From Bdellovibrionales bacterium (GTDB lineage Bacteria; Bdellovibrionota; Bdellovibrionia; Bdellovibrionales; UBA1609), in contig JANODG010000003.1 of the NCBI GenBank assembly GCA_031412575.1, forward strand, positions 1 through 53,250: a stretch of DNA of 53,250 nucleotides, given 5' to 3'. Of this stretch, positions 1,597-31,150 are shown piece by piece. The notes beneath the pieces are model-generated. The model did no database searches. It was not told the DNA's origin and worked only from the letters and a program-made list of their open reading frames with translations. The stretch's first letter is position 1; every line of letters begins with the position of its first letter. Both the position numbers and the translations under genes were made by a program.

Positions 1597-1988
1597 TCTC
1601 TAAGTTTAATCTTTGAGCATAAGTTTTGACAATGCGGCCGAAGGGCTTGGTAGGAAATTTAAGCAGAATTGCACTTTTAAGGACAAAAGCAAAAAACTGC
1701 TAGAAAATAAGGGCCATTAAAATAGGGTCTTGTTCATGAATTCTATTTGAAGGGTACTACCATTCCAAGATTCGAAAATGATAAAAATAAACAGAAGCAG
1801 CCGACAAAAGAGCGGAAATTATAGCATCAACAAATTCTATTAAATTTAAAAATTCCTATACGATAGTTCCTATAACTTTATGGCAACAACTTTTTAATTT
1901 TGAAACAATAGTTTAATCTTCGATCAAATTTTTTATTGCAATTAGTCTTATTTAAGGAAGAGTATTAATTATGGAATAGGAAGGACGT

Positions 1989-2525
1989 ATGAAGACGTTG
2001 AGAAACATTTCGTTAATTATATTAACAATATTCTTGATACTTAATAATATAACGTATGAATTTTCTGAGTTTTGCGAAGAATATGATAAAAGGGGAATCA
2101 TTTTTTTTCCAAAAAAACTTAAATGTTTGTTTTCGTCTACCTATAGAGATGAATTATTATCAAAAGACATAGTTAATTTCACCAAACTTGTAGAAAAGTT
2201 AAAAGTCGATAATTTTGGAGAGCTTTATTTTGAATCTGGAAAGAAACCAGAAAATGCTAAAAAGTATGTAGAAATAACTTCAATTTATTATGAGAAAATC
2301 TACGCTATCTTTGGAACGGTTAAAATTAAAAATTGCACGATCGATATTAATAACTTTGATGATATTACAAGGGGAGTAATATTTTGTCCAGACGAAGGCT
2401 CATTGAACGAAGGTTTTGAATTTTTACTAAGCGAAATTAAATTGACAGAACGACCAACAATTCCATTTAAAATTGTTAGAGCTTTTTTGAGATACGACGA
2501 AAGACTGCAACCGACGTTTAAATAA
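1989..2525 (+). CDS. Hypothetical exported/anchored protein
   Basis: 178-aa ORF with an N-terminal hydrophobic segment (ISLIILTIFLILNN). It is on the opposite strand to the dcw genes, in a visibly more AT-rich stretch. I recognise no motif. Confidence 0.45.
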   Translation: MKTLRNISLIILTIFLILNNITYEFSEFCEEYDKRGIIFFPKKLKCLFSSTYRDELLSKDIVNFTKLVEKLKVDNFGELYFESGKKPENAKKYVEITSIYYEKIYAIFGTVKIKNCTIDINNFDDITRGVIFCPDEGSLNEGFEFLLSEIKLTERPTIPFKIVRAFLRYDERLQPTFK

Positions 2526-2722
2526 GCTTACTTGCATCCGATTAAGGTAATTGTAAGCCATCCATCTATTTTGTTAGTGAGATTATTTTAAGTTTGCAAA
2601 TAATTCTCGAGATGGAGAACTTTCAATTGTATTAAGGCCAACGTTTTTCAAATTATGCAACGCTATGAAAGTGCAGATATACAAAAGACATTGAAACTAC
2701 ATGCTTTAAAAGTCGTAAATCA

Positions 2723-3268
2723 TCAAACCTGTACAGATATCTTTTTCCAATGATTTTTAAAATTATCTAAATATTCTTCACGTTTTCTGTACCCCCTTTG
2801 TCTTTCGATACGATTCGCTTGAAAGTAAGCCTTAAGCCCTAACATTTCAAAAGACGAAGTCAGCACCCTTGTAAACACTAATCCATCCCAGAATTTACCG
2901 AACTTAAATCCTTTTCTAGCTTTAGTGATTTTTCGGGCTAAAAGCGCGGAAAATGTTCTTAGGAAGTTTTTAAAAAATATTGGGTTTTTGAATCTTACTT
3001 TTAAATGCAAATGATTACCCATGTTTACAAAATCTAAGATTTCTATGAAATATTTTTTTGATCTTTCTTGCAGAACTGACTTTACTAAAAGTCGGTTTTT
3101 GTAAAAACTTAAATTATCTTTAGCTTTTGAAGACTTAAAAACCACGTGTGTGATTTTGCCGGGTACGATTGGACGCGCAACTTTTCGTTTAGATTTTTTA
3201 AGTACACCACCATGAGATAGCATCTTAAAAGACTTTAATTTATTTTTTGGGTCAAGACTCAATTGCAT
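2723..3268 (-). CDS. IS200/IS605-superfamily (COG1943) HUH Y1 transposase-like protein, RAYT-like
   Basis: HUH motif in GNHLHLKV, preceded by ITHVVFKS. FWDGLVFTRV and the C-terminal tyrosine motif YFQANRIE match the layout of single-domain Y1 transposases and REP-associated tyrosine transposases. No IS ends are evident in the flanks. Confidence 0.6.
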   Translation of the reverse strand: MQLSLDPKNKLKSFKMLSHGGVLKKSKRKVARPIVPGKITHVVFKSSKAKDNLSFYKNRLLVKSVLQERSKKYFIEILDFVNMGNHLHLKVRFKNPIFFKNFLRTFSALLARKITKARKGFKFGKFWDGLVFTRVLTSSFEMLGLKAYFQANRIERQRGYRKREEYLDNFKNHWKKISVQV

Positions 3269-3616
3269 TGGGGCAATATAATTTTGTTATCTAAATCATG
3301 CAATTAAAAACACTTCGTGTTAAATAAAATTTATTAACCATTGATGAAGTAAGTGAACAATTTTTCGTGATTAAAATTTTAGTTCTTGTATTACTTGCAG
3401 ACTTTTAAAGAACTTATTTTAACGAATGAATTTCCTATTGCTGAAGTCGAAGCTTTTAAAACAACAATAGTTTATATTCAAAAAAAGAAAATGGATTTTG
3501 AAATAAATAATAGAGGAATAAAAAAATAAAGGATATAAAGGATTACAAATTTTTTATAAGAACGATTTAGTCAAACTTGATTTTTCCCCGATAGAGATAA
3601 ACAGGAGCTAATGTTC

Positions 3617-4147
3617 TCAAAAATATTCCGGAGGTTTAAAACCGGATTTAAATATTTTTCGCTGCTGAATATTACTTTTAAACATACAAGTGGTTGTTTT
3701 GTGATTTTGAAATTCTGATGGTAATTCTGCAAATCCTAATTTTTCGTAAAAGAATTTATCAATATCTGAATAAAGAAAAATGATACAGTCTTTGCTTTCG
3801 AACATAAGCTTATCCACGACCATTTTTAAAATTGTAGAACCATAACCGCACCCACGAAGTGGTACCGAGACTGCGATAGAGCCAATACCAAAAGTTATAT
3901 CATCAAATTTATAGACAATTAAGGACGCCATAAGGTGACTAGTTTGAGCTAAATTTACATCTATGCTATCGGCCAGCATTTTATTTTTCGAATTTTTCAC
4001 TAAAACTTTAAACTGGCCACTTTTATATTTTTCAGAATTATGACATATCAGTAAATACTCTTTTTCATCTAGACCATCTGACCAAACGTCATAGCCCATC
4101 ATAAAAATTTCATTCATTTCGGATTTTTTTGAATTTCTGAGGATCAA
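3617..4147 (-). CDS. GNAT-family N-acetyltransferase
   Basis: Acetyl-CoA binding motif A (VPLRGCGYGSTILKMV) sits in a 176-aa protein of typical GNAT size. The gene starts 6 nt after the ddl stop. Confidence 0.7.
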   Translation of the reverse strand: MILRNSKKSEMNEIFMMGYDVWSDGLDEKEYLLICHNSEKYKSGQFKVLVKNSKNKMLADSIDVNLAQTSHLMASLIVYKFDDITFGIGSIAVSVPLRGCGYGSTILKMVVDKLMFESKDCIIFLYSDIDKFFYEKLGFAELPSEFQNHKTTTCMFKSNIQQRKIFKSGFKPPEYF

Positions 4148-4153
4148 TTTGCT

Positions 4154-5062
4154 CTATCCAGCGTCCAAAGTCGCTTTGTCGATCAACAAACGAATGATGT
4201 CTGTAAACTTATATCCGGCATGTTTAGCGGCCTTTGGTAACAAAGACGTTGGTGTCATACCAGGAAGAGTATTCACTTCAAGGGTAAAAATATTTTCGTC
4301 CTTATCCAACATAAAATCGACACGGGCGTAAGCGCGAAGTTCGAAGTGATTAAATATTTTTTCAGAATAAGATTTTAGAATTTTTATAGTTTCGGGCTTT
4401 AGGGGTGAAGGAATGATGTAATCTGTTTTACCGGCAGTGTATTTATTTTCGTAATTATAAAATCCCTCTTTGGGCTTAATTAAAATGGGTTCTAAAGCTT
4501 CACCGTTTAAAAGTCCAACGGTAACATCATGACCTACGATGAACTGCTCTACGATCAGTTCAGAGAACTTCTTTAAAGCCTCGTTTAAATTTTTTAAATA
4601 CTCGCTTTCGTTTTGACAAATATAAACACCAACACTTGAACCGTCTTGATTAGGTTTAATTAATGCCGGGTAACTTTGAGGGCGTTGGTATTCCTCCGCT
4701 TTTAAATTCTTTTTTCTTAAAATTAAAAATCCTTCAGGTGTGGGAATATTTAAAATTTTAAATTGCTGTTTAGATTTTTCTTTATGAAAAGCCAAGGCCG
4801 AAGCCAGAACACCACTGCCTGAGTAGGGCAACTTTAAATACTCACATAAACTTTGAACAATTCCGTCTTCTCCGTATCTGCCATGAAGTGCAATTAAGAC
4901 TAATCTAAATTTTCTGGATTTTAGATTTTCTACAAGATGATTATCTGCTTCGAAAACTTCAAAGCGCTCGTTCATTTCGGTCAGCGCATCTTGAATAGCT
5001 TTTGATGTGACACGACTAACTGCGGCTTCCGAACTCGGTCCACCTTGAATAACTGCGATCAT
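4154..5062 (-). CDS. ddl: D-alanine--D-alanine ligase
   Basis: ALHGRYGEDGIVQSLCEYLKLPYSGSG and an ATP-grasp C-terminal half (EVNTLPGMT). dcw context. Confidence 0.95.
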   Translation of the reverse strand: MIAVIQGGPSSEAAVSRVTSKAIQDALTEMNERFEVFEADNHLVENLKSRKFRLVLIALHGRYGEDGIVQSLCEYLKLPYSGSGVLASALAFHKEKSKQQFKILNIPTPEGFLILRKKNLKAEEYQRPQSYPALIKPNQDGSSVGVYICQNESEYLKNLNEALKKFSELIVEQFIVGHDVTVGLLNGEALEPILIKPKEGFYNYENKYTAGKTDYIIPSPLKPETIKILKSYSEKIFNHFELRAYARVDFMLDKDENIFTLEVNTLPGMTPTSLLPKAAKHAGYKFTDIIRLLIDKATLDAG

Positions 5063-5076
5063 AAATTCCCCAATGA

Positions 5077-6006
5077 TTAATTATCTAAATGTTCCCATGG
5101 ACCTAAATAAACAACCTCAGTATGTAGAGAAACTTGATTTTTTTCAAAGACTTTGGCCTTCACATGTTCAATAACTCTATGTATGTCCTGTGATGTCGCA
5201 TTACCTGTGTTCACAATAAAGTTAGCGTGTTTATACGAAACTTGCGCTCCGCCGATCTGAAATCCTTTTAAACCTAAACTTTCAATCAACTGACCCGATT
5301 TATAATTGGGTGGGTTCACAAAAACGGATCCGCAACTGGGTTTGTCCCAAGGCTGTTTAAGCTTTCTATTGTTGATTGCTGTCTTTACTTTTTCTGCCAT
5401 GTCTTCGACGGGCTTCATGGGATACGACAAAACTACTTCAAAAATAAATCCAGGCTGCCAATTCTTTGAAGATCGATACGACCAAACCAAATCTTGACCT
5501 TGCAATTCTTTAATTTCAAATTTGGAATCATCCCAAGATAAGACTTTGATCGACTTTACGATTTCACAAAACTCTCGAGGTTCTATGGCTTCGCCAACGC
5601 CGGCATTCATCACAACCCCACCGCCCACATCCCCAGGAATTCCTGACAAAAATAATGCAGGAGATAAGTTATATTTTAAAAACTGGCGCATCACTTTATA
5701 TTTTAAGGCCCCGGCCTGACATTTTAAGACTAACTCATTTTGATCTGACACAACTTCGACGTCTTGAAATTTTTTAGAACATAAAACTAAACCGTGAAAT
5801 CCATCATCGCTGATTAAGGCGTTTGAACCTTGACCTAAAAAACACAAAGGCATATTTTTGGAATTCGCCCATAGTATACAGTCTTTATATTGGTCCAAAT
5901 TTTCGGGTACGGCAAAAAATTGAGCTAAACCACCCGTCTTCCAAGTGTTGTAAGATTTTAAACTTACATTTTCTTGAATCAAGCTTGGTTTCGAAATTTC
6001 TGCCAT
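5077..6006 (-). CDS. murB: UDP-N-acetylenolpyruvoylglucosamine reductase
   Basis: FAD-binding N-terminus (SLKSYNTWKTGGLAQFF, GQGSNALISD), GIPGDVGGGVVMNAG and SCGSVFVNP motifs. Confidence 0.95.
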   Translation of the reverse strand: MAEISKPSLIQENVSLKSYNTWKTGGLAQFFAVPENLDQYKDCILWANSKNMPLCFLGQGSNALISDDGFHGLVLCSKKFQDVEVVSDQNELVLKCQAGALKYKVMRQFLKYNLSPALFLSGIPGDVGGGVVMNAGVGEAIEPREFCEIVKSIKVLSWDDSKFEIKELQGQDLVWSYRSSKNWQPGFIFEVVLSYPMKPVEDMAEKVKTAINNRKLKQPWDKPSCGSVFVNPPNYKSGQLIESLGLKGFQIGGAQVSYKHANFIVNTGNATSQDIHRVIEHVKAKVFEKNQVSLHTEVVYLGPWEHLDN

Positions 6007-6023
6007 TTAATGTATCCTTAAAA

Positions 6024-7397
6024 TTACGAGTAAAATTTTGGTGTAAGCTGGTTAATGCTTCCCGCTCCTAATACAATAACAACATCATCTGCTTTTAAGC
6101 TCGGTTGAATTTTCGCACACACCACATCTAAATCACCTGAAACCCATTCTGCTATTTTTGAACTGGATTCCAAACTAAAAATCTTTGAAATTCCTAAAAC
6201 TAAATTTTCAGTATTCACACCATCAATGGGAATTTCGCCGGCAGAATAAATATCTGTAATATAAATAATATCACAGCGATTAAAACATCCTAAAAATTGC
6301 TCCCAGCAGGATTGCACCCTGGAAAATCTATGAGGTTGAAAAATCCCAATTATTCTTTGATTAGGATATCTTTCTTTGACCGCTTCAAGCACATGGTACA
6401 CTTCAGTAGGGTGGTGAGCGTAGTCATCAATAAAAACCATTGGGATTTTAGTCTGTGGGTGAATTTGAAATCTTCGTCCAACACCTTCAAACGACTCCAC
6501 ACCTTTGGCTGCAGTTTGAAAATCCAAACCTAAACCGTCGATGCCCACAATCAAGCTGGCTAAAGAATTTAAGCCATTGTGTTTGCCCGGAAGACTGGAT
6601 TTAAAGTCACCAATCATTTTTTGATTATGATAAACTTCAAAAACAGAATCACCTTTGGATTTCAAAACATAATCACAATCTTCGCTAAATCCATAAGAAA
6701 TAGATTTTTTTGGGTAATCCGAAAAAATTTCTCTTAAGTCGTTGTCGTCGCCGCAATAAACAAGTCGTCCGTAAAATGGAATTTTATCTGCGAAATTTCT
6801 ATAAGCTAATTTTAAATTTTCGTAGGTGCCATAAAAATCTAAATGATCATTATCAACATTCGTGATGATGGCAATTTCTGGAGAGAGCTTATCAAACGAA
6901 CCGTCGCTTTCATCAGCTTCAGCCACTAACCAATCCCCTTGTCCCCATTTCACGTTTGAATTTAATTTTTTAACAACTCCACCAACGACAACTGTAGGAT
7001 CAAGTCCCGCTTCCATAAGCATGGAAGCCACAAGGCTTGTGGTTGTTGTTTTGCCATGCGTGCCAGCTACTGCGATACCTCGTCGAAGACGCATAAGTTC
7101 TGCCAAAGCTTCTGCACGTCTGATCAAAGGAATTTTATTTTTGAGTGCATATATATATTCTGGATTGGATTTTGAGATAGCACTTGAATACACAACCACA
7201 TCAGGTGTTCCCACATTTTCCTGGTCATGACCTATGTGAACCGTAATTCCTAAATTTCTTAAGTGTGTTGTCATCGATCCTTCTTTGACATCACTTCCAG
7301 AAACTTTTGCACCCAGTGAAAATAAAACTTCAGCCAGGCCACTCATGCCTATGCCGCCCACACCAATAAAATGAAATGTATTTGCAACGATTTTCAA
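6024..7397 (-). CDS. murC: UDP-N-acetylmuramate--L-alanine ligase
   Basis: HFIGVGGIGMSGLAEVL and the Mur ligase P-loop VAGTHGKTTTTSL. The longest ORF reaches 7442. TTG at 7395-7397 has AAGGAA 7 nt upstream and gives a normal N-terminus (LKIVANTFHFIGVGG), so I prefer it. Confidence 0.93.
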   Translation of the reverse strand: MKIVANTFHFIGVGGIGMSGLAEVLFSLGAKVSGSDVKEGSMTTHLRNLGITVHIGHDQENVGTPDVVVYSSAISKSNPEYIYALKNKIPLIRRAEALAELMRLRRGIAVAGTHGKTTTTSLVASMLMEAGLDPTVVVGGVVKKLNSNVKWGQGDWLVAEADESDGSFDKLSPEIAIITNVDNDHLDFYGTYENLKLAYRNFADKIPFYGRLVYCGDDNDLREIFSDYPKKSISYGFSEDCDYVLKSKGDSVFEVYHNQKMIGDFKSSLPGKHNGLNSLASLIVGIDGLGLDFQTAAKGVESFEGVGRRFQIHPQTKIPMVFIDDYAHHPTEVYHVLEAVKERYPNQRIIGIFQPHRFSRVQSCWEQFLGCFNRCDIIYITDIYSAGEIPIDGVNTENLVLGISKIFSLESSSKIAEWVSGDLDVVCAKIQPSLKADDVVIVLGAGSINQLTPKFYS

Positions 7398-7474
7398 AAA
7401 CAGATTCCTTAAATAGATAATGTCGAAGCAAGCGAAAACCAAAATAAAGTTCGTCTTGAATTCAGAACATAAAT

Positions 7475-8593
7475 TTAAATGTTAGTAAAATCCTCGACCA
7501 TATTGTACGTGGCTTTGGGTTTAAAAAAAGCTAACATTTTCTGACTGATTTGTCTTTGTTCAGCTAAAGGTTTATGCCTGAAGCTATTTAAAAAATCTAT
7601 AATGGACTGAACTGACAAGTTCTTTTCTTCGATAAGGCCTGCAGCCCCTCTTTGGCTTAAAGCTAAAGCATTTTTGTACTGATGATTGTCTGATGCTAAG
7701 GCAAATGGCACAAAAAGACAGTTTGAACCTAATGCGGCAAGTTCAGCCAAGGCGCCTGCCCCCGACCGACAAATTATCACGTCCGAGGCTAAATAAAAAT
7801 CTATGATAGGATCCAAAAAGGGCAAAACTGTAAGATTAGAAATGGTCGGATGACCTGACATTTGAGCGATAGATTTTTGTGTAGAGTCAAAGTTTTTTAA
7901 ACCCGTTTGCAATGTAAAATGAAAATCGGGATTTGCTAAGGCGACCTTTGGTATTAAATCATTTAAAACTTTAGCGCCTTGGCTTCCACCAAAAACGAGT
8001 ACATTGAGTGACTGTGGTTTAGAATTTAATTCAGTTTGTGATCGGTTAGCTTCTTCATATCGCAGATCAAAATCGTGCCTAACCGGATAACCGAAACATT
8101 TTGTTTTATCATTAGGGAAAAACTTTAAGCTCTCTTCAAAAACGACATAACATCGTTTGACTACTTTTGATAAAAGCTTATTAGCAATTCCGGGCTGAAC
8201 GTTGGCTTCCCAAACAGCAGTTTTAAAAAATAAAATTGAGGCGATAAATACAATGGGGCCCGAAGCGTATCCGCCAAACCCCATAACACGTTGGGGGCGA
8301 AACGTGATTAAAATCCATAAGCAATGAAGAAAAACGAAAGGAAGAGTAAGAACTGTTTTTATCTGTTCCGCACGACCAACACTTGAATGTAAAGGACCAA
8401 TTTTTAATTTATAAAGTTCGTAACCTTTGTCTGGAATTATTTTTGACTCTAAGCCACGCTGACTGCCGACAAATCTTATGTTCACACCTGGATTTTGTTT
8501 CTTAAATTCTTCAGCCAAAGCTAAGGCGGGATAAATGTGTCCGCCTGTTCCACCGCCTGCTAATAAAATTCTCTTCAAAGGTGTTCGTTTCAT
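7475..8593 (-). CDS. murG: UDP-GlcNAc:lipid I N-acetylglucosaminyltransferase
   Basis: N-terminal GGTGGHIYPALALAEE motif, 372 aa, dcw context. Confidence 0.95.
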   Translation of the reverse strand: MKRTPLKRILLAGGGTGGHIYPALALAEEFKKQNPGVNIRFVGSQRGLESKIIPDKGYELYKLKIGPLHSSVGRAEQIKTVLTLPFVFLHCLWILITFRPQRVMGFGGYASGPIVFIASILFFKTAVWEANVQPGIANKLLSKVVKRCYVVFEESLKFFPNDKTKCFGYPVRHDFDLRYEEANRSQTELNSKPQSLNVLVFGGSQGAKVLNDLIPKVALANPDFHFTLQTGLKNFDSTQKSIAQMSGHPTISNLTVLPFLDPIIDFYLASDVIICRSGAGALAELAALGSNCLFVPFALASDNHQYKNALALSQRGAAGLIEEKNLSVQSIIDFLNSFRHKPLAEQRQISQKMLAFFKPKATYNMVEDFTNI

Positions 8594-8621
8594 AATTTCA
8601 TCCGCCCGATAGATTATGAAA

Positions 8622-9191
8622 TCATAAAAACTTTTGTTCTACAATATATCTCCAAGGCAATAGCGCATCTTCTTCCGCGTAACCAATCCCGATTCTTGGG
8701 GTTGCAGTGTAATTTAATTTTCGTCCATGGTCTTCAAACCAGATGTACTGACTTTCATAAAGTTTATCCCCATTATGATTTACTTTTATTCCCAAGGCCT
8801 GACTTAATTTCCCAGGTCCCGAGGCCAGATCCTGAGATCCTTTTCGTCTTGAGCTTTGGATCTTTAATCCTTCATAAGGTAATACGGCACGGACTAAAAC
8901 AGCCTGTGGCCAATCTTTGGGGCCAGTGATGATATTGAATAAGTGGTGTATCCCGTAACATAGATAAATGTAAGCAAGTCCACCTTCTTCATAAAAAATC
9001 TCAGTTCGCGGAGTTCTTTTTTCCTTGTAGGCATGACAAGCTTTATCTTTAAACCCGCAATAAGCTTCTGTCTCGATAATGATTCCAGATGTATATTGCC
9101 CATCGAAGTTCGTGACTAAGGTTTTACCTAACAGCTTTTGGGCGACTTCATTGACATCTGGATTTTCGAAAAAATGTTTATCAAGTCTCAT
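8622..9191 (-). CDS. mpg: 3-methyladenine (alkylpurine) DNA glycosylase, AAG/Mpg family
   Basis: VAQKLLGKTLV, IIETEAYCG, HAYKEKRTPRTEIFY, GLAYIYLCYGIHHLFNI, VLVRAV and GPGKLSQALGI match the Mpg family along the full length. Confidence 0.9.
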   Translation of the reverse strand: MRLDKHFFENPDVNEVAQKLLGKTLVTNFDGQYTSGIIIETEAYCGFKDKACHAYKEKRTPRTEIFYEEGGLAYIYLCYGIHHLFNIITGPKDWPQAVLVRAVLPYEGLKIQSSRRKGSQDLASGPGKLSQALGIKVNHNGDKLYESQYIWFEDHGRKLNYTATPRIGIGYAEEDALLPWRYIVEQKFL

Positions 9192-9219
9192 GTAAATTTA
9201 GCGCTTTTCCAAAAGAATA

Positions 9220-11876
9220 TTACCCAAGTTTTGCATAAAAATCTTTCCACGGGTCCACTTTTTGTGTTTTTACACGTTTGATCACTTCGGGTATACTAAA
9301 AATTTGAGGGTTTAAATTTTCGTGAACTTCGTTCCAAAACAAGGGCACCGCGACTGGTGCTCCTTCTCTGGCACGAGTGGAATAATTTAATACTGAGGTC
9401 GCCGATTTTGAATTTCTTAAGTAATCGATAAAAATTTTATTCTTCCGTAATTTTAAACTTGAATTCGTAAGATACATATCAGGTTTTGAATCGACCAAAA
9501 TTTTTGCAATGTTTAGCGAGAATTTTTTGGCTTCAGCCCAACCCATACCTTCAACATGAGATAATACATGTAAACCCTTACCGCCGGTTGTCCGAACAAA
9601 CGATTCAAGACCATGTTGTTTTAATATTAATCGAATTATGTGCGCCGTTAATGTCACTGAACTGAATTTTACCCCAGGACCTGGATCAATATCCCACACC
9701 ACATATTGTGGACGATCGGTGTCATGGATAGCGCAATTCCAAGCATGGAACTCCAAAGCTCCAAGTTGAACCATAGATGCAAGATCATCAAAAGAATCAA
9801 AGTAGGAGTAAGGCTTTTTTCCGCTCGATGTTTTTATTTTCGTTTGAAGTGGATGGCCATCATCTGGATCAACATGTTTCTGAAAAAAACAAGTTTTAGA
9901 TTTTCCCCGAGGACAACGTAAGTAACTTAGTGGACGTCTTAAACCCATTTTTTTAAATTCAGGAAAAACTAAGTGGTAATAATCCAATAGATCTTTTTTA
10001 GTGAGTTTAATCTCTTCATAAAAGACGCGCTCAGGATTAGAAAGAATCACTGAAGTTTCATAAGTATTTTGTTGGCTCTTTTCGTTTCCGATATTCATTT
10101 TTTCAATTTTCACGTTAGATTTTAGTCCCTGGGATTTTTTTGGTTTTGAATTTAATTTTTTAGCTTCATAGAATTTATCAGCCCGAAGACCAAGGAATAC
10201 AGGATGGCGAAGTTTCTTTTCTCTACTTTTTTCTGTATAGCGAATCTCTGCAAAGAAATTAGGCTTGATAAAATGAGCAGATTTTTCATCACAGTTTTTT
10301 GCAGGACACTCTTTAATTTTAAGTTTGGAAATTTTCTTAAAAATTGAACTTAATTTTTGATCGTCAAAACCCGTGCCTACTTTACCTCTATAGTGTAGTT
10401 CACCGTCTATTTCCTCAGCCAACAGTAAGGCTCCAAAAAAATCGCGATGACCTTGCGGTTCCGTCCAGCCAATAACGACGTATTCTTCACGGTGACCACA
10501 CTTTAACTTTAACCAGTTTTGCGATCGACTTTGTTGATACGGTGAATGCTTATGTTTTAAGATGACACCTTCATGACCTTCGTCACAAAGTCGATCAAGA
10601 AGTTTTTCCGTCCATTCAAACTCTTCAGAGACTGAAATAACCGGGTTTTCATTATCTTGATTTATTTCTAAAAATAACGCATTTAGTATTTGTCTGCGGA
10701 CATTTTGTTCTAAATGGATGAGTGAATAATGATCCATATAAAAAATATCAAACACTTTAAATGCAAGGCGCGCGACTTCACCATCTTTTAAATAGCCTTG
10801 TAAAGTTTGGAAGCTTTCTCTAGGTGATGGTTTAATTTTAGAATTTGGTTCCGTGGATCGTACAGTTTTACTTCTAGTTTTTTTGACCACGGAAGTTTTT
10901 TTATCATAAGCTATAATTTCACCATCGATGACAATTTGTTCAACTGGTAAGTTTTCAACAGCCTTTTTAATAGGTAAAAACTTTGAGCTCCAGTCGTGCC
11001 CGTTTCTGGTATAGAGATAAACCGAACTTTTTTTTTAAATGCTAAAATGCGATAACCGTCGTACTTGTGCTCGACCGTCCAATCTTTCATATCCAAAGGC
11101 GCTACTTCAGTCAAAGTCGCTAACTGAGGTTTTAATGTTTTAGGAAATTTTGAAGGTTTTAATTGTAAGCATGTACCAAAATCTTTATCAGTACTTTTTT
11201 GATGATCAATGTGTTTTTCGGTTTTTTTGTGAGTGTTTCTTTCGGTTTCTATAATTTCGCTTTCGTCATCTACAAAGTCTTTAAATTGGCGACCTGTGGC
11301 TACGCTGGTTTGCCAAGCTAAACTTATATATGAATCTGAATTAGGGTTTGAATCCAATTTTATCTTTTCAGACCAACCCTCAATGGCATATTTGTCTTTT
11401 TCTTTCACTAAAAGCCATGGCGATTTTGTTGATTTACTTTTTTTATCACCTTTCATTTTAATCAAATTCCAAATGCCTCTTAGCCTTATGCCTTTCATGT
11501 AAAACTTTAGATGACCTTTTTCCAAAGCGACCTTCACGTTTTTAACTAAGGGGCGCCATGTTCCCACATCCCACATCATGGATGGACCAGCGCCATAAGT
11601 GACTTCAGGGATCACACCTTCAAAAGATTTATATTCCACGGGGTGATCTTCCGTTTTAACAGCTAAACGTTTATCTTTTGGATCGAAGGAGGGACCTTTA
11701 GGAACAGCCCATGACAAAAGCACACCTTGCCATTGAAGCCTTAAATCAAAATGTAATCTTTTGGCATCATGGAAATGAATCATAAAATCTTTAGACAGGG
11801 ATTTTGAAGCTGTACCCTTTGGTTCAGACGTTTTTAAAAAATTTCTTTTTTCGTTATAAGAACTTAGTTTTTTCAT
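9220..11876 (-). pseudogene. ligD: Multidomain ATP-dependent DNA ligase LigD (phosphoesterase-ligase-polymerase), split into two ORFs by a frameshift in an A9 run
   Basis: ORF 10911-11876 carries the PE domain (HFHDAKRLHFDLRLQ, WAVPKGPS) and ligase motif I (EHKYDGYR). It goes out of frame right after ILAFKKK. Shifting one base in the A9 tract gives ...KKSSVYLYTRNGHDWSSKFLPIKKAVENLPVEQIVIDGEIIAYD..., which is continuous with ORF 9220-10890. That ORF holds the rest of the ligase/OB domains plus the primase-polymerase domain (DIDPGPG, TTGGKGLHV, IFIDYLRN). Confidence 0.85.
11028..11036 (-). other. A9 homopolymer (T9 on plus strand) at the ligD frameshift point
   Basis: Minus strand reads GCA TTT AAA AAA AAA GTT. 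The downstream frame is closed by TAA immediately 5' of the run, so the two frames can only be joined within these 9 nt. Confidence 0.85.
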
Positions 11877-11969
11877 AAGCAGTAACCCTTCATAGGTTTA
11901 ATTTTTTAAGCGTTTTAAATGAGTAAACTCATCTTTTTTTCGCCAACTATATTCCCTTGATTATTCAAG

Positions 11970-12782
11970 CTACCTGGCTTTATTAATTTTCAAACTTTTT
12001 TCAAGAAGTTCAGTGATATTGATCACATTACTTTTTGGAGTTTCGATAGTTTCTGATTTTTTAGATTTAGAGGTCTTCTTTGAAGATTTCTTTCGGCTTA
12101 AACTCTTTACGTATTTTTTCAAAGCCACTTTGTATTCGTCTTTGAACTCTTCGGGACTCCAAGCACTAGACAAAGAATCCACTAAATCACTGGCAAGCTT
12201 TTGTTCCTTAGTCGAGATCCTTACAGCTTTTACATCTTTGATAAATTCAAATTCAGATAAATCTTTTAAGTCTGGTTTAAATCTCAACAGATTTAAAATA
12301 AGTGCATTTCCCTCTGCAATGATAGCCCCTAAGTGTTCACGGGTCTTTATTGTGACTTTACCTAACGCCGCCTTTTTTTTAGATTCCAAAGTTTTGTATA
12401 ATAAGGAATAGCTTTTTTCGGCTTTTTTGCCAGGAGCTAATACATAAGGCTTATCAAAGTAGTAATAGGGAATTTCCTCGACATCAACAAACTCCGTCAA
12501 TTCTATAGTTTGTGTGGACTTAAGTTGAATACCTTTTAAAGTTTCTTTATCGAGTGTGAGATAAACATCTTCCGAAATTTTATAACCCTTTGTGATATTC
12601 TTCCAAGGCACTTCTTTGCCTGTGTCTGCATTAATCTTTTTATACTGAATTCTTGCCTGGTCGCGACCATCAATCATATTAAGATCAATATTATCTTTTG
12701 TGTTTTGCATTGATAATAATTCAATAGGTATATTAATCAAACCAAAACTTATATTGCCATCCCATATTGCTCTTGCCATCAA
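11970..12782 (-). CDS. ku: Non-homologous end-joining protein Ku
   Basis: N-terminus MARAIWDGNISFGLINIPIELLS and a Lys-rich C-terminal tail (KKSSKKTSKSKK) are typical of bacterial Ku. The gene is adjacent to ligD. Confidence 0.9.
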   Translation of the reverse strand: MMARAIWDGNISFGLINIPIELLSMQNTKDNIDLNMIDGRDQARIQYKKINADTGKEVPWKNITKGYKISEDVYLTLDKETLKGIQLKSTQTIELTEFVDVEEIPYYYFDKPYVLAPGKKAEKSYSLLYKTLESKKKAALGKVTIKTREHLGAIIAEGNALILNLLRFKPDLKDLSEFEFIKDVKAVRISTKEQKLASDLVDSLSSAWSPEEFKDEYKVALKKYVKSLSRKKSSKKTSKSKKSETIETPKSNVINITELLEKSLKINKAR

Positions 12783-12952
12783 AAGAATATAGCAGCAAAT
12801 TATTTAAACTAGTTTCATTTAATATATATAGAATGTGTAGATAAAAACACATTTAAGGTTTTAGTGTTTTTAATCCTGAATTTTAGAATGAAAAATGTTA
12901 CACTTTATAACTCGTAGTACTAATATTTTTTATAGTAAAAGAAGGATTCATT

Positions 12953-13468
12953 ATGATTAAACCAAGTTTAAATGCAGGTGCATTATCGGGCGTTATCGCA
13001 ACTTTTCCGATGAGTGTTGTGATGTTGGCTGGAAAAAGAATATTCCCGAAAACGATTGACAACATTCCACCTGAATCTGTGGCCAAATCTATTTTGGACA
13101 AATCAAGTTTAAATACAGAAACCTTAGAAAAAACTAAATTAGTTGAGCCTATTGTTTGGAGCAGTCACTTCGCCTATGGCATGGCTGCAGGTTCAATGTA
13201 TCCTTTATATAGATCTATATTACCAACAAAAGTAAGCGAGATAAAAGCTGGAGCGTCTTATGGGCTTTTAGTTTGGGCCGCTAGTTATTGGGGTTGGTTG
13301 CCGGCAACACACGTTTTACCAGCTCCTCAGGAAACAAAGGCTTCAGATAACGTCACTAGAATTGTTTCCCATGTTGTATGGGGTGCGGTTTTGGGATTAT
13401 GTTTTAATCTTTTAAGAAGTAAGGTTGAAAAAATTGAACCCTTAAAAGGAAAAGAAAAGTATTTTTAG
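12953..13468 (+). CDS. Hypothetical integral membrane protein
   Basis: 171-aa ORF with several hydrophobic helices (GALSGVIATFPMSVVMLAG, LLVWAASYWGWL, VVWGAVLGLCFNLL). Divergent from ku. Confidence 0.5.
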   Translation: MIKPSLNAGALSGVIATFPMSVVMLAGKRIFPKTIDNIPPESVAKSILDKSSLNTETLEKTKLVEPIVWSSHFAYGMAAGSMYPLYRSILPTKVSEIKAGASYGLLVWAASYWGWLPATHVLPAPQETKASDNVTRIVSHVVWGAVLGLCFNLLRSKVEKIEPLKGKEKYF

Positions 13469-13501
13469 AAGTATCACTTAGACTTTTTACGAATTAAAGG
13501 A

Positions 13502-14620
13502 TTAAGCTTTTTTGCAACTTAAGTTTAACAAAATTCCAAATAGCAAACAGGTGGATAAAAGTGAACTTCCACCGTAACTCATAAAGGGTAAAGATAGTCC
13601 CTTAGTAGGTAATAATCCTAGGACTACACATATATTCAAAAAAACTGAATATGAAAATAAAGTCACAAGGCCAAATGCAATCACTCGACGCTGATCTTCC
13701 ACTTGAGTTAATGTGTTTTGAAGGCCTCTAACGATTAATGTGCCTACTAAAATCATGAAAACTGCGAAACCAAAAAAGCCCCACTCTTCGCCAATGACAG
13801 CCATAGTGAAATCCGTGTGTGCTTCAGGCAGAAAATAAAGTTTCCCTTGGCCCTCGCCCACGCCACGACCAAAAAGACCTCCACTTCTAAAACTTAATAA
13901 ACTTTGAATGATTTGAAATCCAGAGCCTTTAGGATCAGCCCATGGATCCATAAAAGACTGAAGTCGTTTTAAACGATAAGGTTCGGCTCTTAAAAGTAAA
14001 ACAGCAATAAACACAAATGTACTAAACACTGCAATCACTGGCCATAAAGGTCTATAGAAAGTAAATAACAAAATGAGTAAAACCCAACTCATTAAAACAA
14101 AAGATCCGAAATCAGGTTGAAACATAAATAAACCAAAAGGCAAAATCAAAAATAGAATTCGAAATAAATTATTTTCAGAAAAAAACTTTTCCTCTTGAAC
14201 TTTCAAAATCCAAAAACTAAAGGGAAATAAAATAAAAACTTTAATAAATTCCGAAGGCTCGATCCTAAAACCTAAAGGCAAAGACAACCATCGGTGAGCC
14301 CCACCTGCTCTAACGCCAATTCCAGGAATCAAAGTTAGGGCCAAGCCAACTAAAATCAAAAAGTAAGAGTAATAACAAAGCTTAATCAAAGCCGAAGTTT
14401 TTAACTTCACAATAAATAAAATCAATCCCAAGCCAAACAAAGTAAATAACAACTGCTTTTTAACAAAGAACAATCCATCATCTTTTAAATCCGTCGCTAA
14501 GATATAGCTCGAAGAATAAACTTGAATTAATCCAAACCCTAACAGAAAAAAAATCGTCCACAACGACAATCGATCTATCACTTCAAATTCCGAAAACAAT
14601 TTCTTAAAAATAAACGTCAT
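13502..14620 (-). CDS. ftsW: Peptidoglycan glycosyltransferase FtsW (SEDS family)
   Basis: Polytopic SEDS protein with PSEFIKVF, EAHTDF and LPFMSYGGSSLL motifs. dcw context favours FtsW over RodA. Confidence 0.9.
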   Translation of the reverse strand: MTFIFKKLFSEFEVIDRLSLWTIFFLLGFGLIQVYSSSYILATDLKDDGLFFVKKQLLFTLFGLGLILFIVKLKTSALIKLCYYSYFLILVGLALTLIPGIGVRAGGAHRWLSLPLGFRIEPSEFIKVFILFPFSFWILKVQEEKFFSENNLFRILFLILPFGLFMFQPDFGSFVLMSWVLLILLFTFYRPLWPVIAVFSTFVFIAVLLLRAEPYRLKRLQSFMDPWADPKGSGFQIIQSLLSFRSGGLFGRGVGEGQGKLYFLPEAHTDFTMAVIGEEWGFFGFAVFMILVGTLIVRGLQNTLTQVEDQRRVIAFGLVTLFSYSVFLNICVVLGLLPTKGLSLPFMSYGGSSLLSTCLLFGILLNLSCKKA

Positions 14621-14860
14621 ATCCCTATTTAACGACTTTCAAACCCAAAAGACAATTCTAGACCCAAACGAAACAAAGCCAAAAACCCAAACCAAAATAC
14701 TCACCCATCAAATCAAAATCCCAAAAAAACAAAAACCACCTAGACCAAACTCCTAAACTCCCATCCGGCCACAAAAAAATTTAATATTCCCCGAAATCCC
14801 TAATCCTAGAACGGAAGTAAAAGAAATCTTACATCTGTTGAAATTGAATTTTGTCCTTGG

Positions 14861-15076
14861 GTTTTGTTGGGCTTGGGTTTTGTGAGAGTTTGATTTAGCT
14901 TATAGATATATTTCTGAGTTCGGATTGGCGTGCAGTTTGCCCTATGAATAAAAAAAGAGGAACCATTTGGTTCCTCTTTTTTTATTCACTACGTACAAGC
15001 GCATGCCAACCGCATGTCTGAAGAAATAAATCTATAAGCTAAATCAAACTCTCACAAAACCCAAGCCCAACAAAAC
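14861..15076. repeat. 216-bp palindromic element (MITE/REPIN-like) with perfect 46-bp terminal inverted repeats
   Basis: 14861-14906 (GTTTTGTTGGGCTTGGGTTTTGTGAGAGTTTGATTTAGCTTATAGA) is the exact reverse complement of 15031-15076, checked base by base. Imperfect pairing continues inward to a central hairpin. Confidence 0.85.
14950..14983. terminator. Bidirectional intrinsic-terminator-like hairpin
   Basis: AAAAAAAGAGGAACCA-TT-TGGTTCCTCTTTTTTT. The GC core is GAGGAACC/GGTTCCTC, with an A7 run on one side and a T7 run on the other, so a U-tract follows the stem on either strand. It lies at the centre of the palindromic element between murD and ftsW. Confidence 0.7.
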
Positions 15077-15090
15077 TCACAGAACAAAGC

Positions 15091-16476
15091 CTATTTCAAC
15101 TGACGAACGATTTCTTTAAAATAGTTCCCACGTTCACGATAGTCATCAAACATATCAAAGCTCGAAGCCCCTGGTGATAACAGAACAGTGTCGTTGATTC
15201 TAGATTTTGAATAGGCCATGTGAACAGCTTCATCAAAAGTTCCAATCAAGAAAGTTTCACTGTAATCGCCAATGTCTCTGTTGATTTTTTCTTTCACTTC
15301 ACCGTAAAGAATCAAAGTTTTAACTTTCTTTCTAATTTCGTCTTTTAGCGGTGCGTAGTTCAAACTTGTGTCCTTACCACCCATGACTAAAATGATATTT
15401 TCATCAAAGGCTTTAAGTGCGCGCATAACTGCATGCACATTAGTCGCTTTAGAGTCGTTGTAAAATTCAACGCCACCAACTTTTCTGACGTACTCAAGAC
15501 GATGTTCAATACCAGTAAAAGAATCAATCACTTCTTGAATGGCTTCATGGGTTGCTCCATGTTCACGTACCGCAAGAATAGCCGCCATCATATTTTCAAT
15601 GGCATGAAATCCACGAAGCTTGATGTTTTTTACAGAAAACACTTCGATGTCTGGACCTGTTCTGACTTTAATTTCGTCGTTGATTTGAACAGCACCACCA
15701 ATGTTCATGATTTGCGGCTCTAAAGATGATTTTCTAGAAAAATAATAAATCACACCTCTTTGCACTGCCGGGTCACGAGCTAACTCAACCACCGCATTGT
15801 CATCGGCATTTAAGATGCTTGATGTTTCAGAACTCGTGTTAAGAAAAATCTTTCTTTTGGCATTGATGTAATCTTCCATAGATTTATGACGATCTAAATG
15901 GTTTTCCGCTAAGTTCATAAAGACAATATTTTTTGGTGCGAATTCTACAACATGTTCAAGCATAAAACTTGAAGCTTCAACGATCAACACATCTGCTTTT
16001 TGGTCTTCGTTGAAATACGTCACCATTGGTTTTCCGTAATTTCCACCAACCCAAACTTTTTTACCAGACTTTTGAAGCATTTCATGAATTAAAGATACAG
16101 TCGTTGTTTTACCGTTAGTCCCAGTCACAGCGATAATTGGCTCTTGCACGAAGCGAGAAGCGAATTCAAATTCCCCTGTCACTTGTACACCATTGCTTTT
16201 CGCATAATCGAAAATTTTAAGTTGCGGAGAAATTCCTGGGCTTAAAATAATTAAGTCTTGCTGCAAAAATATTTTAGGTGAATGATTTCCTAAATCAAAA
16301 TTGATTTGTAGGTCTTCAATTTCTTCTAAGTGATTAGCTAATTCTGCTTTTGATTTGTGATCGCTCACTGTAACAACAGCACCATTTTTAACTAAAAATC
16401 TAGCTAGGGAAACCCCGGTCTTTGCTAAACCAACAATAAGAATTTTTTTATCTTTTAATTCTGCTAAACTGTGCAT
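15091..16476 (-). CDS. murD: UDP-N-acetylmuramoylalanine--D-glutamate ligase
   Basis: N-terminal Rossmann motif (ILIVGLAKTGVS) and the Mur ligase P-loop VTGTNGKTTTVSL. dcw position. Confidence 0.95.
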   Translation of the reverse strand: MHSLAELKDKKILIVGLAKTGVSLARFLVKNGAVVTVSDHKSKAELANHLEEIEDLQINFDLGNHSPKIFLQQDLIILSPGISPQLKIFDYAKSNGVQVTGEFEFASRFVQEPIIAVTGTNGKTTTVSLIHEMLQKSGKKVWVGGNYGKPMVTYFNEDQKADVLIVEASSFMLEHVVEFAPKNIVFMNLAENHLDRHKSMEDYINAKRKIFLNTSSETSSILNADDNAVVELARDPAVQRGVIYYFSRKSSLEPQIMNIGGAVQINDEIKVRTGPDIEVFSVKNIKLRGFHAIENMMAAILAVREHGATHEAIQEVIDSFTGIEHRLEYVRKVGGVEFYNDSKATNVHAVMRALKAFDENIILVMGGKDTSLNYAPLKDEIRKKVKTLILYGEVKEKINRDIGDYSETFLIGTFDEAVHMAYSKSRINDTVLLSPGASSFDMFDDYRERGNYFKEIVRQLK

Positions 16477-16611: not shown

Positions 16612-16645
16612 TTACCTAATTAACTTACCTAAATAATTTACCTAA
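16612..16645. repeat. Three direct repeats of TTACCTAA at an exact 13-bp period
   Basis: Copies at 16612-16619, 16625-16632 and 16638-16645. The last overlaps the mraY stop codon (16638-16640). Confidence 0.6.
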
Positions 16646-17714
16646 GTTTCAAAGTCGCTAGTGACAATACAGCCAACAAAATTGAAATAATCCAAAAGCG
16701 AACAATGATTTTTGATTCTGGCAAACCTTGAAGTTCAAAATGGTGATGTATTGGTGCCATTTTAAAAATACGTTTTTTACGAAGTTTAAAAGAAGCCACT
16801 TGAGTAATCACCGAAAGCGCTTCGACGACAAATACGCCGCCCAACAAAACCATTAGAATTTCATTTTTAGTAAGAACCGCAAGTATTCCTAAGTAACCAC
16901 CTAAACTTAAACTTCCAACATCACCCATAAACACTTGAGCAGGGTAAGAGTTAAACCATAAAAATCCCATTCCAGAAGCAATCAAAGCGGCACCTAAAAT
17001 TGTAAGCTCACTTGCACCTGCTACAAAAGGAATCTGCAAGTATTCAGCAATTTCAGAATGTCCAGCGACATAACTAAAAATCATTAGCGCACTTGCAGAC
17101 ACCATGACCGGCACAATCGCAAGTCCATCTAAACCGTCTGTAAAATTGACGGCGTTCGCACAACCGACAACAACTAATCCAGAAAAGATCACGTAAAACC
17201 AACCCAAATCTAAAGTGACATTTTTAAAAAATGGAAAGTTTAAGACAGAAGTGTTCGGGTCAACATAGACCAATGTACCAACAACTAAAAAAACTGTAGA
17301 GAACTCCGCAAGAAGTCTTATCTTCCCAGATAAACCTTTGGTATTTTTTTTACTCACTTTTAAGTAATCATCAATGTAACCAATCACTCCAAAAATTAAA
17401 GTGACTATGTACACAGCCCAAACCAACGGATTTTTGAGATCTACCCAAAGTAAACTAGGGATAAAAAAACTTACCATGATCAGTCCACCACCCATTGTTG
17501 GTGTACCTTGTTTTTTTAAATGTGACTGTGGCCCGTCGTCACGGATAGATTGCTTTCTTTGCTTGTTAGCAAGACCGCGAATAAAAAAAGGCCCCCAAAT
17601 TAAACAAAGAAAAAATGAACTAAAAAAAGTGACGAATGATCTTGTAGTTACATATCTTAAAACATTGGCCCAACTGTCATCGAGACCAAATGTTTGAATC
17701 AGTTGATAAATCAA
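16638..17714 (-). CDS. mraY: Phospho-N-acetylmuramoyl-pentapeptide transferase
   Basis: [24 protein letters not shown] and APIHHHFEL motifs. Confidence 0.95.
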
Positions 17715-17747: not shown

Positions 17748-19166
17748 CTAGACAAAGTCTTTAAGGAATTTTTCTAAACCAATTCCTCTTGAAGCTTTTA
17801 ATGCCACCCAATCCTCTGGTTGTAGCATAGATTGATATTTCAATGCAAGCGTTTGTTCATAAGTACTTGATATCATTAGATTTTCTTTGATTTTTGCAAG
17901 GCCAATTGTGGATAAATACCCCTGCTTAAAAACTTCGCACGATGGTCCAATAAACCACACGTTTTTATGTGGTGTTTGACCGACAAGTTGGCCAAGTTCG
18001 TAATGTACATCTTTAGCGTGATCTCCCATTTCTAACATTTCGCCTAAAACAAAATAAGGGGAATCAGATAAATGTTTTGTCTGCGACAAAAAAACTTTCA
18101 TACTTTCGGGATTGGCGTTGTAAGCGTCGAAATATATCGAAACATTATTTTTTGATTTTAAAATTTCACTTCGTCCCCAGACAGGAGCGATCATTTCAAA
18201 ACGTTTCCAAATGTTTTCTGGTTTTAGTCCTGCAATTTTAGAAACGGCAGCGGCTATCGCAACATTAAGTCCGTGATGTTCACCTGCAATATTTATTTTT
18301 GCTTTTCCAGGATAATTAAAAATATGACCTTCGATTTCAAAAGAATTAAATTCAGCGTTGATGATCTTAAAATAAACATCTGCAGTCTTATCTTTTAAAG
18401 AAATCTTGATGATATTGAAATTTGGATCAGATAAATTTCTAGAATATTTTTTTTGATAGTCCTTATAAATTCTTGGGTCATCGATGTTTATAATGTGAGT
18501 CTGACCTTCCTGAAAAATGCTCATCTTTTCGTTCAACACATGTTCGATGGTCCCTACGCCCTCTAAATGACCACGACCAACCATGGTGACCGCTGTGACG
18601 TTAGGTTTCGCTAAGCGCACCAAATTCGAAATTTCACCCGGGTGATTCATGCCTATTTCTATTAAGGCAAGCTTATGTTCTGATTTTAAATCCAGCAAAG
18701 TAAACGGAACACCAATGTGATTATTAAAACTTTTTGGTGAGAAGTAATGCGGCACCAAACCTTCAAGCATTTGATGAGAAAAGTATTTAGCTGATGTTTT
18801 TCCACTTGTTCCCGTGATGGCGACTTTCAAACAATCAAGTTTTGAAGAAGAAGCTACTGAAATCTTTTGTAGGGCTTCAATTGTGTCTTCAACTACAAAG
18901 AAACTAGCTTCGAAATTGTAGGTGGATTTTTTTTGATTGAATGTGGACTCTTTGACTAGGAATCCAAGGGCTCCGTTTTCATACGCCTGATTTAAATAAT
19001 CGTGAGCATCGAAGTTATCCCCTTGAATGGCGATGAATAAAGCACCTTCAGTTTTAAGTCGTGAATCCGTAGACCACGATGACCAATTGTCGTGATCGTT
19101 TAAACCAATTTGGCTTTTGAGTGAATTTCCTAATGCTGATTTAATTTCTAACGTTGTTAAATTCAT
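17748..19166 (-). CDS. murF: UDP-N-acetylmuramoyl-tripeptide--D-alanyl-D-alanine ligase
   Basis: Mur ligase P-loop ITGTSGKTSAKYF, EIGMNHPGEI and DAYNANPESM. dcw position. Confidence 0.92.
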   Translation of the reverse strand: MNLTTLEIKSALGNSLKSQIGLNDHDNWSSWSTDSRLKTEGALFIAIQGDNFDAHDYLNQAYENGALGFLVKESTFNQKKSTYNFEASFFVVEDTIEALQKISVASSSKLDCLKVAITGTSGKTSAKYFSHQMLEGLVPHYFSPKSFNNHIGVPFTLLDLKSEHKLALIEIGMNHPGEISNLVRLAKPNVTAVTMVGRGHLEGVGTIEHVLNEKMSIFQEGQTHIINIDDPRIYKDYQKKYSRNLSDPNFNIIKISLKDKTADVYFKIINAEFNSFEIEGHIFNYPGKAKINIAGEHHGLNVAIAAAVSKIAGLKPENIWKRFEMIAPVWGRSEILKSKNNVSIYFDAYNANPESMKVFLSQTKHLSDSPYFVLGEMLEMGDHAKDVHYELGQLVGQTPHKNVWFIGPSCEVFKQGYLSTIGLAKIKENLMISSTYEQTLALKYQSMLQPEDWVALKASRGIGLEKFLKDFV

Positions 19167-21041: not shown

Positions 21042-21578
21042 TTGAATCATTCTAATATGAAGATTTGGTTGTCACTTTCATTTATTTTTTCTATCTGTCA
21101 GCCTTACGTTCAAGCAAATAGCTTTAAACACAATTTAATTAATAAAAAAATGGGAGGCCTTATGGGCGCTATTAGCCCTGTAACCACTGGAACTCTTCAC
21201 AACATCGAGGTTAAAAACATTAATAACGAGCTTATTGGTGAAATTATCATCCAGGGCACGTTTTCTAACCGTGAAGATAACTCTCCCATAAAGCCAAGCG
21301 AATTGCTTGAATATCCACAAAGGCGCGTGATTTCTGAACTGATCTCAGTCTCAGCTTCGGTTCAATTTAAATTCAAAGTGGTAAATATTAAAGCCGAAAT
21401 TATAGCCTCAAAGGATGAGCAAAAGGCATTGAATAGCGTCGCTAACGAGCTGGATAAAAACAAAGGCCTAAAAATATCAAAATCCGAGACTATCGTGCCT
21501 GGTAATCCAGAATTTAAAGCTGCTCTCGTGAAACATTTAAAATCGCAATATAACCTAGCAGCAGAATTCCTGCGATAA
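21042..21578 (+). CDS. Hypothetical secreted protein
   Basis: The ORF opens at TTG 21042. ATG 21057 (MKIWLSLSFIFSICQPYVQA) gives a cleaner signal peptide. No recognisable domain. Confidence 0.45.
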   Translation: MNHSNMKIWLSLSFIFSICQPYVQANSFKHNLINKKMGGLMGAISPVTTGTLHNIEVKNINNELIGEIIIQGTFSNREDNSPIKPSELLEYPQRRVISELISVSASVQFKFKVVNIKAEIIASKDEQKALNSVANELDKNKGLKISKSETIVPGNPEFKAALVKHLKSQYNLAAEFLR

Positions 21579-21767
21579 GGACTTGGTTTCACATGAAATG
21601 CGGCTTTTTAAAACGGACTGAAATGCAAAAAAGCTGACCAAATAAAACCCATCTCGGTAATTTATTCATGAAATCAAAGCGCACTTAGTGAAACTTAAAG
21701 TCCTGGACTATTATGGTTTCTAAGAAATCGGTTAATTTGAATAGAATTTAACTCTAGGAGTAACTTT

Positions 21768-26403: not shown

Positions 26404-26465
26404 GACTTGGAGCGTGATGTCTAGCGTCCTTATTTTCATATAAGATTATCAAAGGGTGTTCTTAT

Positions 26466-31114: not shown

Positions 31115-31150
31115 AAATCCCTCTTTATTGCCTATAAATTTTAATTTCAA

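Follow-up and report, generated by a model that had tools for sequence, protein, structure and literature searches.

In the window analysed here, a 53,250-nt stretch of a Bdellovibrionales bacterium (GenBank assembly GCA_031412575.1, contig JANODG010000003.1, positions 1 to 53,250 of the forward strand), the genes ku and ligD of bacterial non-homologous end joining (NHEJ) and mpg, which encodes an alkylpurine DNA glycosylase, lie between ftsW and murG of the division and cell wall (dcw) cluster. Our comparisons indicate that this arrangement probably arose when a relocating ku-ligD cassette inserted, in one species of a Bdellovibrio-like genus, at a permissive ftsW/murG junction, and that any co-transcription with the dcw genes would be passive. 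A preliminary description of the locus had read the same layout as a coupling of repair genes to division genes. Were such coupling real, a predator with a non-replicating phase would have the repair of its double-strand breaks built into its division programme; what we found favours a passive insertion confined to one species, and the locus is a new instance of known parts.

The ftsW/murG interval of this genome spans 4.9 kb and holds four non-dcw genes, namely a DUF1440-family membrane protein gene, ku, ligD and mpg (Table 1). We compared it with four congeners (G001 to G004), one genome of a neighbouring genus (G005) and a set of 384 species representatives of the order. In three of the four congeners ftsW adjoins murG, with gaps of 19 nt (G002), 72 nt (G003) and 106 nt (G004), and the murG orthologue also stands directly after ftsW in G005 (gap of ~63 nt). 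In the remaining congener, G001, this junction is filled by 1.9 kb of different cargo (L034:4920-6798), composed of two opposite-strand open reading frames (ORFs) of 177 and 271 aa whose products appear to be exported. In that species murG must therefore be served by a promoter of its own. The ftsW-murG pair is described as a sub-cluster that usually persists even when dcw clusters fragment (PMC9395523); it is broken in two of five congeners, this genome included. Other junctions also vary among these five, with spans of 1.0-6.5 kb at ftsI/murE, 2-3131 nt at ddl/ftsQ and 152-850 nt at murD/ftsW. The dcw cluster of the genus therefore consists of modules separated by variable cargo. It accepts this cargo at defined junctions, even between ftsW and murG, which normally stay together, and each dcw segment must therefore have its own promoters. 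Across the order, Ku was found in 92 of 384 genomes, and the 78 other Ku-positive genomes include none with ku and murG less than 100 kb apart on one contig; contigs that carry both genes have them separated by ~200 kb or more. The preliminary description had raised the question of whether relatives carry ku and ligD at this position: none of the four congeners and none of the 78 other Ku-positive genomes does, so the position is unique to this genome and a conserved place of ku within the dcw cluster was not found.

The cassette itself recurs in other settings. The nearest Ku proteins in public assemblies were 85, 78, 74 and 66% identical, each encoded directly upstream of ligD, and the four loci lie in four different neighbourhoods. 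In L044 the pair is flanked by an fn3/BNR gene and hypothetical genes; in L050 it follows genes for ArsC and DUF188; in L049 it diverges from an Rce1-like gene; and in L047 (9054-14435) it lies inside the ffh-rpsP-rimM-trmD-rplS-rnhB block, co-directional with the genes on either side, trmD and a methyltransferase-rplS pair. Another contig of the present genome (C143, 16365-18164) is syntenic with the last of these gene for gene; there the cassette site is empty, and the methyltransferase gene follows trmD after 70 nt. The ku-ligD pair of congener G003 is much more distant (44% identity) and lies on another contig, beside an AlkB-like gene. These comparisons suggest that the cassette relocates within the lineage and that the dcw junctions of the genus repeatedly take up foreign cargo.

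We found that the cassette also carries a promoter-like element of its own. Ku matches the TIGR02772 equivalog over its whole length (240.6 bits vs a cut-off of 150, profile positions 1-259 of 259) as well as PF02735 (2.8e-37, 128.9 bits); the gene is single-copy, and its locus is the sole Ku and LigD locus of the genome. Regions upstream of ku were aligned from five cassettes of this genome's type (G000-type), which stand in different genomic contexts. Despite these contexts, the motif nCT[A/G]CACA occurs at -62 or -61 of the ATG in all five; here it reads TCTACACATT and forms the right arm of an imperfect palindrome (AATGTGT-N9-ACACATT), and it was absent upstream of other Bdellovibrionales ku genes. 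An extended -10 box of the form TGnTAnnnT (TGCTATATT in this genome) stands at -15 or -16 in four of the five, the fifth reading TTATAAAAT, and its hexamer ends 6-7 nt before the ku ATG. Nothing else was conserved in the aligned flanks. No Shine-Dalgarno sequence precedes ku in any of the five cassettes; more distant Bdellovibrionales ku genes have AGGAG-type Shine-Dalgarno sites instead. Because the -10 box lies this near the ATG in the absence of a Shine-Dalgarno sequence, the ku mRNA is predicted to be leaderless, starting at or next to the ATG, from a predicted promoter of its own that we infer to be active. Leaderless start codons are poorly used when they lie inside a longer transcript, which argues against ku expression relying on read-through from ftsW. 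A ku-ligD cassette with a conserved leaderless-type promoter occupies different sites in close relatives, two of them inside housekeeping operons.

Two more accessory genes sit with the cassette, mpg downstream and the DUF1440 gene upstream on the other strand. MPG is a full-length member of its family (PF02245 at 2.9e-59, 199.9 bits, positions 2-179 of 181; TIGR00567 at 184.9 bits vs a cut-off of 116.35). Of 41 relatives, 16 had mpg. In G003 it is unlinked to ku-ligD, and the two samples that yielded the 85% and 74% identical Ku proteins also contain its best homologues (68% and 62% identity), on contigs other than those of ku and in unrelated contexts. A conserved ku-ligD-mpg three-gene unit was sought in the relatives and not found, and DUF1440 occurred in one of 40. 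In G003, ku-ligD is followed convergently by the gene for an AlkB-like 2OG-Fe(II) oxygenase (L038:11166-11822), a second alkylation-repair gene beside ku-ligD in the genus and of a family other than mpg. GC content, GC content at third codon positions and codon usage of all four insert genes fall within the normal range of the genome, and a foreign composition of the insert was rejected on these grounds. The preliminary description had expected a passive insertion to show as a strain-specific block of atypical composition: the insert is indeed species-specific, and its composition is not atypical. We also considered whether a chimeric join had placed ku-ligD-mpg in the dcw cluster. The assembly is fragmented (254 contigs), which would allow such an error, but this would need two independent misjoins in unique sequence; in addition, the borders lack repeats, composition and codon usage are native, intergenic spacing is gene-like, and G001 independently shows that the junction accepts cargo. 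An assembly artefact is therefore highly improbable.

The layout of the block was largely as first described. ku, ligD and mpg are on the dcw strand between ftsW and murG, and the gaps given for ku-ligD (93 nt), ligD-mpg (28 nt) and mpg-murG (28 nt) proved exact; the murG-murC-murB-ddl-GNAT run on the same strand was confirmed, with gaps of 32, 17, 14 and 6 nt. What had not been described is that ligD is split and that the plus-strand DUF1440 gene is interposed. Since this gene, convergent with ftsW (33-nt gap) and divergent from ku (170- or 173-nt spacer, depending on the ku start), sits between the two, ku does not directly follow ftsW, and any ftsW-derived transcript must cross the gene antisense. 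No canonical terminator was found in any gap of the run, in agreement with the earlier claim that it is free of terminator-like hairpins; this absence is weak evidence, because no part of the window has an excess of terminator-like sites relative to shuffled sequence (9 vs 9.6 expected and 17 vs 15.1 expected). The ku-ligD gap holds only a weak AU-rich 7-bp hairpin. At the mpg-murG boundary, the hairpin listed in Table 1 reaches -11.4 kcal/mol (z = -2.7; 2 of 200 shuffles fold as well), and translational coupling of the two genes through this predicted fold is possible; it had no comparative support. The sequence just ahead of murG showed no promoter-like site, and within mpg no extended -10 box was present; a murG promoter shared with the congeners was sought in intergenic regions that do not align. 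From the sequence, co-transcription of ku-ligD-mpg with murG-ddl is plausible.

Under the favoured explanation, transcription would start at the ku promoter and continue by way of ligD and mpg as far as murG-murC-murB-ddl, and read-through from ftsW across the antisense DUF1440 gene may also feed murG-ddl. The co-directional, tight and terminator-free layout is then accounted for, because an insertion before essential genes would need it to survive, and the block would persist because it is transcriptionally transparent. Co-transcription into murG-ddl is thus likely to be a passive, incidental consequence of the insertion, not a selected link between repair and division.

Such a selected link would mean that NHEJ and base-excision repair were recruited to the dcw unit for joint production with the enzymes of division and wall synthesis, pre-loading single-chromosome, non-replicating attack-phase progeny; Ku and LigD are expressed specifically in the forespore of Bacillus, which offers a parallel. 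The nearest named relative is a metagenome-assembled genome (MAG) of the Pseudobdellovibrionaceae, an affinity that fits a biphasic predatory life cycle, and the shared strand, the tiny gaps and the hairpin over the mpg stop and the murG start agree with recruitment. The non-replicative phase invoked in the preliminary description therefore fits the taxon and would explain why the lineage has NHEJ; it does not explain the location in the dcw cluster. ku also stands beside peptidoglycan genes in three further genomes of the family. In G009 (L041:2463-8361), ku-ligD-pol is followed within at most 57 nt by the gene for a class A penicillin-binding protein (PBP1A); in G330 (L137:840-8652) a PBP1A gene of this class lies 2.1 kb downstream of ku on the same strand; and G296 (L102:5208-9600) shows dacB-slt-ku with uppP convergent, 2.3 kb from rsmH-ftsL-ftsI. 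We gauged this proximity against a null taken from the present genome, in which a query-set gene lay no more than 4 kb from 5.3% of 3.3-kb sites drawn at random. Order-wide, four of 53 Ku loci were positive, which is not a significant enrichment (P = 0.30). Restricted to the family, four of 13-19 distinct contexts were positive (nominal P = 0.004-0.016), a post hoc figure whose query set was partly harvested from the positive loci and in which G009 and G330 may share one ancestral context. The association of ku with peptidoglycan genes in the family is thus a lead, not a result, and leaves some room for a non-random link. Against recruitment further stand the position, unique among the 384 genomes and absent from all four congeners, the unrelated contexts of the closest homologues, the unlinked mpg, the opposite-strand gene that parts ku from ftsW, the frameshift in ligD described below, and a predicted leaderless-type ku promoter without a Shine-Dalgarno sequence, which implies poor translation from dcw read-through. 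Taken together, this evidence did not support repair-division coupling as first proposed, and we consider it improbable.

Some observations, besides the three peptidoglycan neighbourhoods, weigh against the insertion of a relocating cassette. No target duplication was found at the insert borders, where direct and inverted repeats amount only to AT-rich matches at chance level, and no integrase or recombinase gene lies beside the insert or within 8594-13501; the terminal repeats, target-site duplication and border recombinase of a mobile element were accordingly not found. Comparisons of empty and filled sites are between species, not strains, and ku-ligD, mpg and the DUF1440 gene may have arrived together or separately.

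The ligD gene is broken. Its frame is lost by a 1-nt shift in an A9 run inside the ligase domain, and the 3' ORF, in addition to the match given in Table 1, matches TIGR02778 (250.9 bits vs 214.7). The NHEJ_ligase_lig profile (TIGR02779) is split between positions 1-40 in the 5' ORF and 79-297 in the 3' ORF and stays below its cut-off of 227.75 in both (176.9 bits in the 3' ORF). As assembled, no single chain holds a complete ligase nucleotidyltransferase domain with the motif I lysine, motifs III-V and the OB domain. An A10 or A7 run would yield one LigD of 885 aa, and adding one A in silico restored an uninterrupted frame. Given the 1-nt frameshift, a full-length ligase requires a change in run length, which could reflect a DNA-level change, slippage of RNA polymerase or a miscalled run in the assembly. 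Of 153 residues that do not vary among eight relatives, the joined product keeps 149, made up of 63 of 65 ahead of the shift and 86 of 88 beyond it; intact relatives did equally well in a leave-one-out version of this test, and no second lesion was present. The 3.0-Mb assembly contains 1078 homopolymer runs of at least 8 nt, and ligD is its only gene truly split at such a run, four other candidate sites being adjacent genes. A systematic homopolymer error of the assembly was rejected, as 713 of the 1078 runs lie inside long ORFs whose frame is unbroken at the run.

The same site is broken in a second lineage. In L049 (Logan contig SRR32162522_822323, 10975-10985; Ku 74% identical), an independent metagenome contig from another sample and another genomic context, ligD loses its frame at this very codon site, where the run is A11, and the relatives whose ligD is in frame have A8 (L044), A6 (L050) or no run (L047) there. 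Runs of 9-11 A are documented sites of transcriptional slippage (PMC5009743), as in tssM1 of Citrobacter rodentium with its 11-A run (PMC4256274), and genes of endosymbionts broken at poly-A tracts are rescued by such slippage (PMC3017870). The present ligD is like these in being an otherwise intact gene whose frames can be joined only within a run of at least nine A, with a second lineage broken at this site; it differs in that the run may be a miscall or a DNA-level phase variant. We also looked for near-identical copies: an exact-flank pattern search of metagenome contigs for the ligD run found nothing, a Ku search of metagenome contigs returned only relatives of at most 42% identity, and a search of genome contigs found a 54% relative. 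Judged from its sequence, the A9 ligD may be a very recent pseudogene, a phase variant, a slippage-dependent gene or the product of a 1-nt assembly miscall.

These results bear on the possibility that the block is a neutral insertion in the course of being lost, with ligD a recent pseudogene and the insert harmless to murG through transcriptional transparency only. The missing complete ligase domain, the sub-threshold NHEJ_ligase_lig matches in the only Ku and LigD locus of the genome, and the patchy distribution of Ku-LigD in the order, which implies frequent loss, all agree with decay. The lack of a second lesion, the conservation of the invariant residues and the intact state of ku, mpg and the DUF1440 gene speak against it, as do the position of the break in a run of a length with documented slippage, the equivalent break in L049 and the possible miscall; we regard decay as unlikely. 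A relocating cassette inserted at a permissive dcw junction remains the preferred reading, and the ligase poly-A site, out of frame in two lineages, offers a cheap way to test whether a repair gene undergoes slippage or phase variation.

We also considered a more ambitious joint reading, to which we assign a low probability, in which ku-ligD is a self-contained, recombinase-free relocating unit, favoured inside essential operons and equipped with a poly-A on/off switch in its ligase. Such a unit could move by end-joining capture at double-strand breaks. It would bring its own leaderless promoter and operator-like -62 motif and persist as a co-directional, transcriptionally transparent passenger; the cases known are the dcw cluster here, trmD-rplS in L047 and, in G009, the site ahead of PBP1A. 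Slippage or phase variation at the poly-A tract that follows motif I, which has lost the frame in two independent lineages, would then switch the ligase.

The individual parts resemble known systems. As in the two-component NHEJ operons of Mycobacterium and Pseudomonas, ku directly precedes a co-oriented ligD, at a distance of 93 nt, and LigD has the phosphoesterase-ligase-polymerase domain order of its P. aeruginosa counterpart, with the phosphoesterase (PE), ligase (Lig), OB and primase-polymerase (Prim-Pol) domains all detected by Pfam and NCBIfam profiles; the two thus qualify as a Ku-LigD gene pair. The pair differs from those operons in the A9-frameshifted ligD, the leaderless-type ku promoter, the clade-specific -62 motif and its place in the dcw cluster, with mpg following. 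The full-length MPG, for its part, adjoins ligD and murG only in this genome; its gene is linked to neither in relatives.

Table 1. Features of the ftsW/murG insert and of the surrounding dcw cluster (window coordinates)
Feature	Position	Strand	Remarks
mraZ	30656-31150	minus	dcw
rsmH	29739-30659	minus	dcw
ftsL	29342-29782	minus	dcw
ftsI	27420-29330	minus	dcw
murE	19309-20913	minus	dcw
murF	17748-19166	minus	dcw
mraY	16638-17714	minus	dcw
murD	15091-16476	minus	dcw
ftsW	13502-14620	minus	Last dcw gene before the insert; PF01098 at 4.2e-93; congener orthologues 64-83% identical
DUF1440-family membrane protein gene	12953-13468	plus	171 aa; PF07274, 41.6 bits vs cut-off 34.7
TCTACACATT motif	12832-12841	minus	-62 from the ku ATG; candidate regulator site
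Extended -10 box TGCTATATT	12786-12794	minus	Ends 6 nt before the ku ATG; predicted promoter
ku	11970-12779 (ATG); in-frame TTG at 12782	minus	269 aa from the ATG
ligD, two ORFs	9220-11876 overall	minus	PE, ligase, OB and Prim-Pol domains detected
ligD 5' ORF	10911-11876	minus	3'-phosphoesterase and start of the ligase domain (motif I KYDGYR), then 43 out-of-frame codons; TIGR02777, 191.3 bits vs 144
A9 homopolymer (T9 on the plus strand)	11028-11036	minus	Site of the ligD frame break, just past KYDGYR
ligD 3' ORF	9220-10890	minus	Rest of the ligase domain, OB, Prim-Pol; TIGR02776, 444.3 bits vs 373
mpg	8622-9191	minus	Alkylpurine (3-methyladenine) DNA glycosylase, AAG/MPG family; PF02245, TIGR00567
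AU-rich hairpin	8588-8629	minus	13-14 bp, encloses the mpg stop and murG start codons; RNA fold
murG	7475-8593	minus	First dcw gene after the insert; PF03033 and PF04101
murC	6024-7442	minus	dcw
murB	5077-6006	minus	dcw
ddl	4154-5062	minus	dcw
murC, murB, ddl and GNAT gene run	3617-7442	minus	Co-directional with murG

The minus strand of the window carries the dcw series in canonical order with all expected genes present (mraZ-rsmH-ftsL-ftsI-murE-murF-mraY-murD-ftsW-murG-murC-murB-ddl-ftsQ), as in dcw clusters elsewhere, but here the series is interrupted at ftsI/murE, murD/ftsW, ftsW/murG and ddl/ftsQ. The ftsI/murE interruption (~6.5 kb) consists of six ORFs on the opposite, plus strand (21042-27218), and the dcw cluster of this genome therefore cannot be a single transcription unit. 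The 2.6-kb ddl/ftsQ interruption (1597-4153) holds the GNAT gene, a 181-aa minus-strand ORF and one plus-strand ORF. A long palindrome occupies the 470-nt murD/ftsW spacer (14621-15090), a spacer that measures 152-850 nt among the congeners; an Rfam search returned only sub-threshold miRNA-hairpin matches, at 14848-15089 within this palindrome. Beyond the head of the cluster, a DacB-like (Peptidase_S13-type) gene lies at 33245-34645, ~2 kb from mraZ, and proximity of dacB to the dcw head, as in G296, may be conserved in the family.

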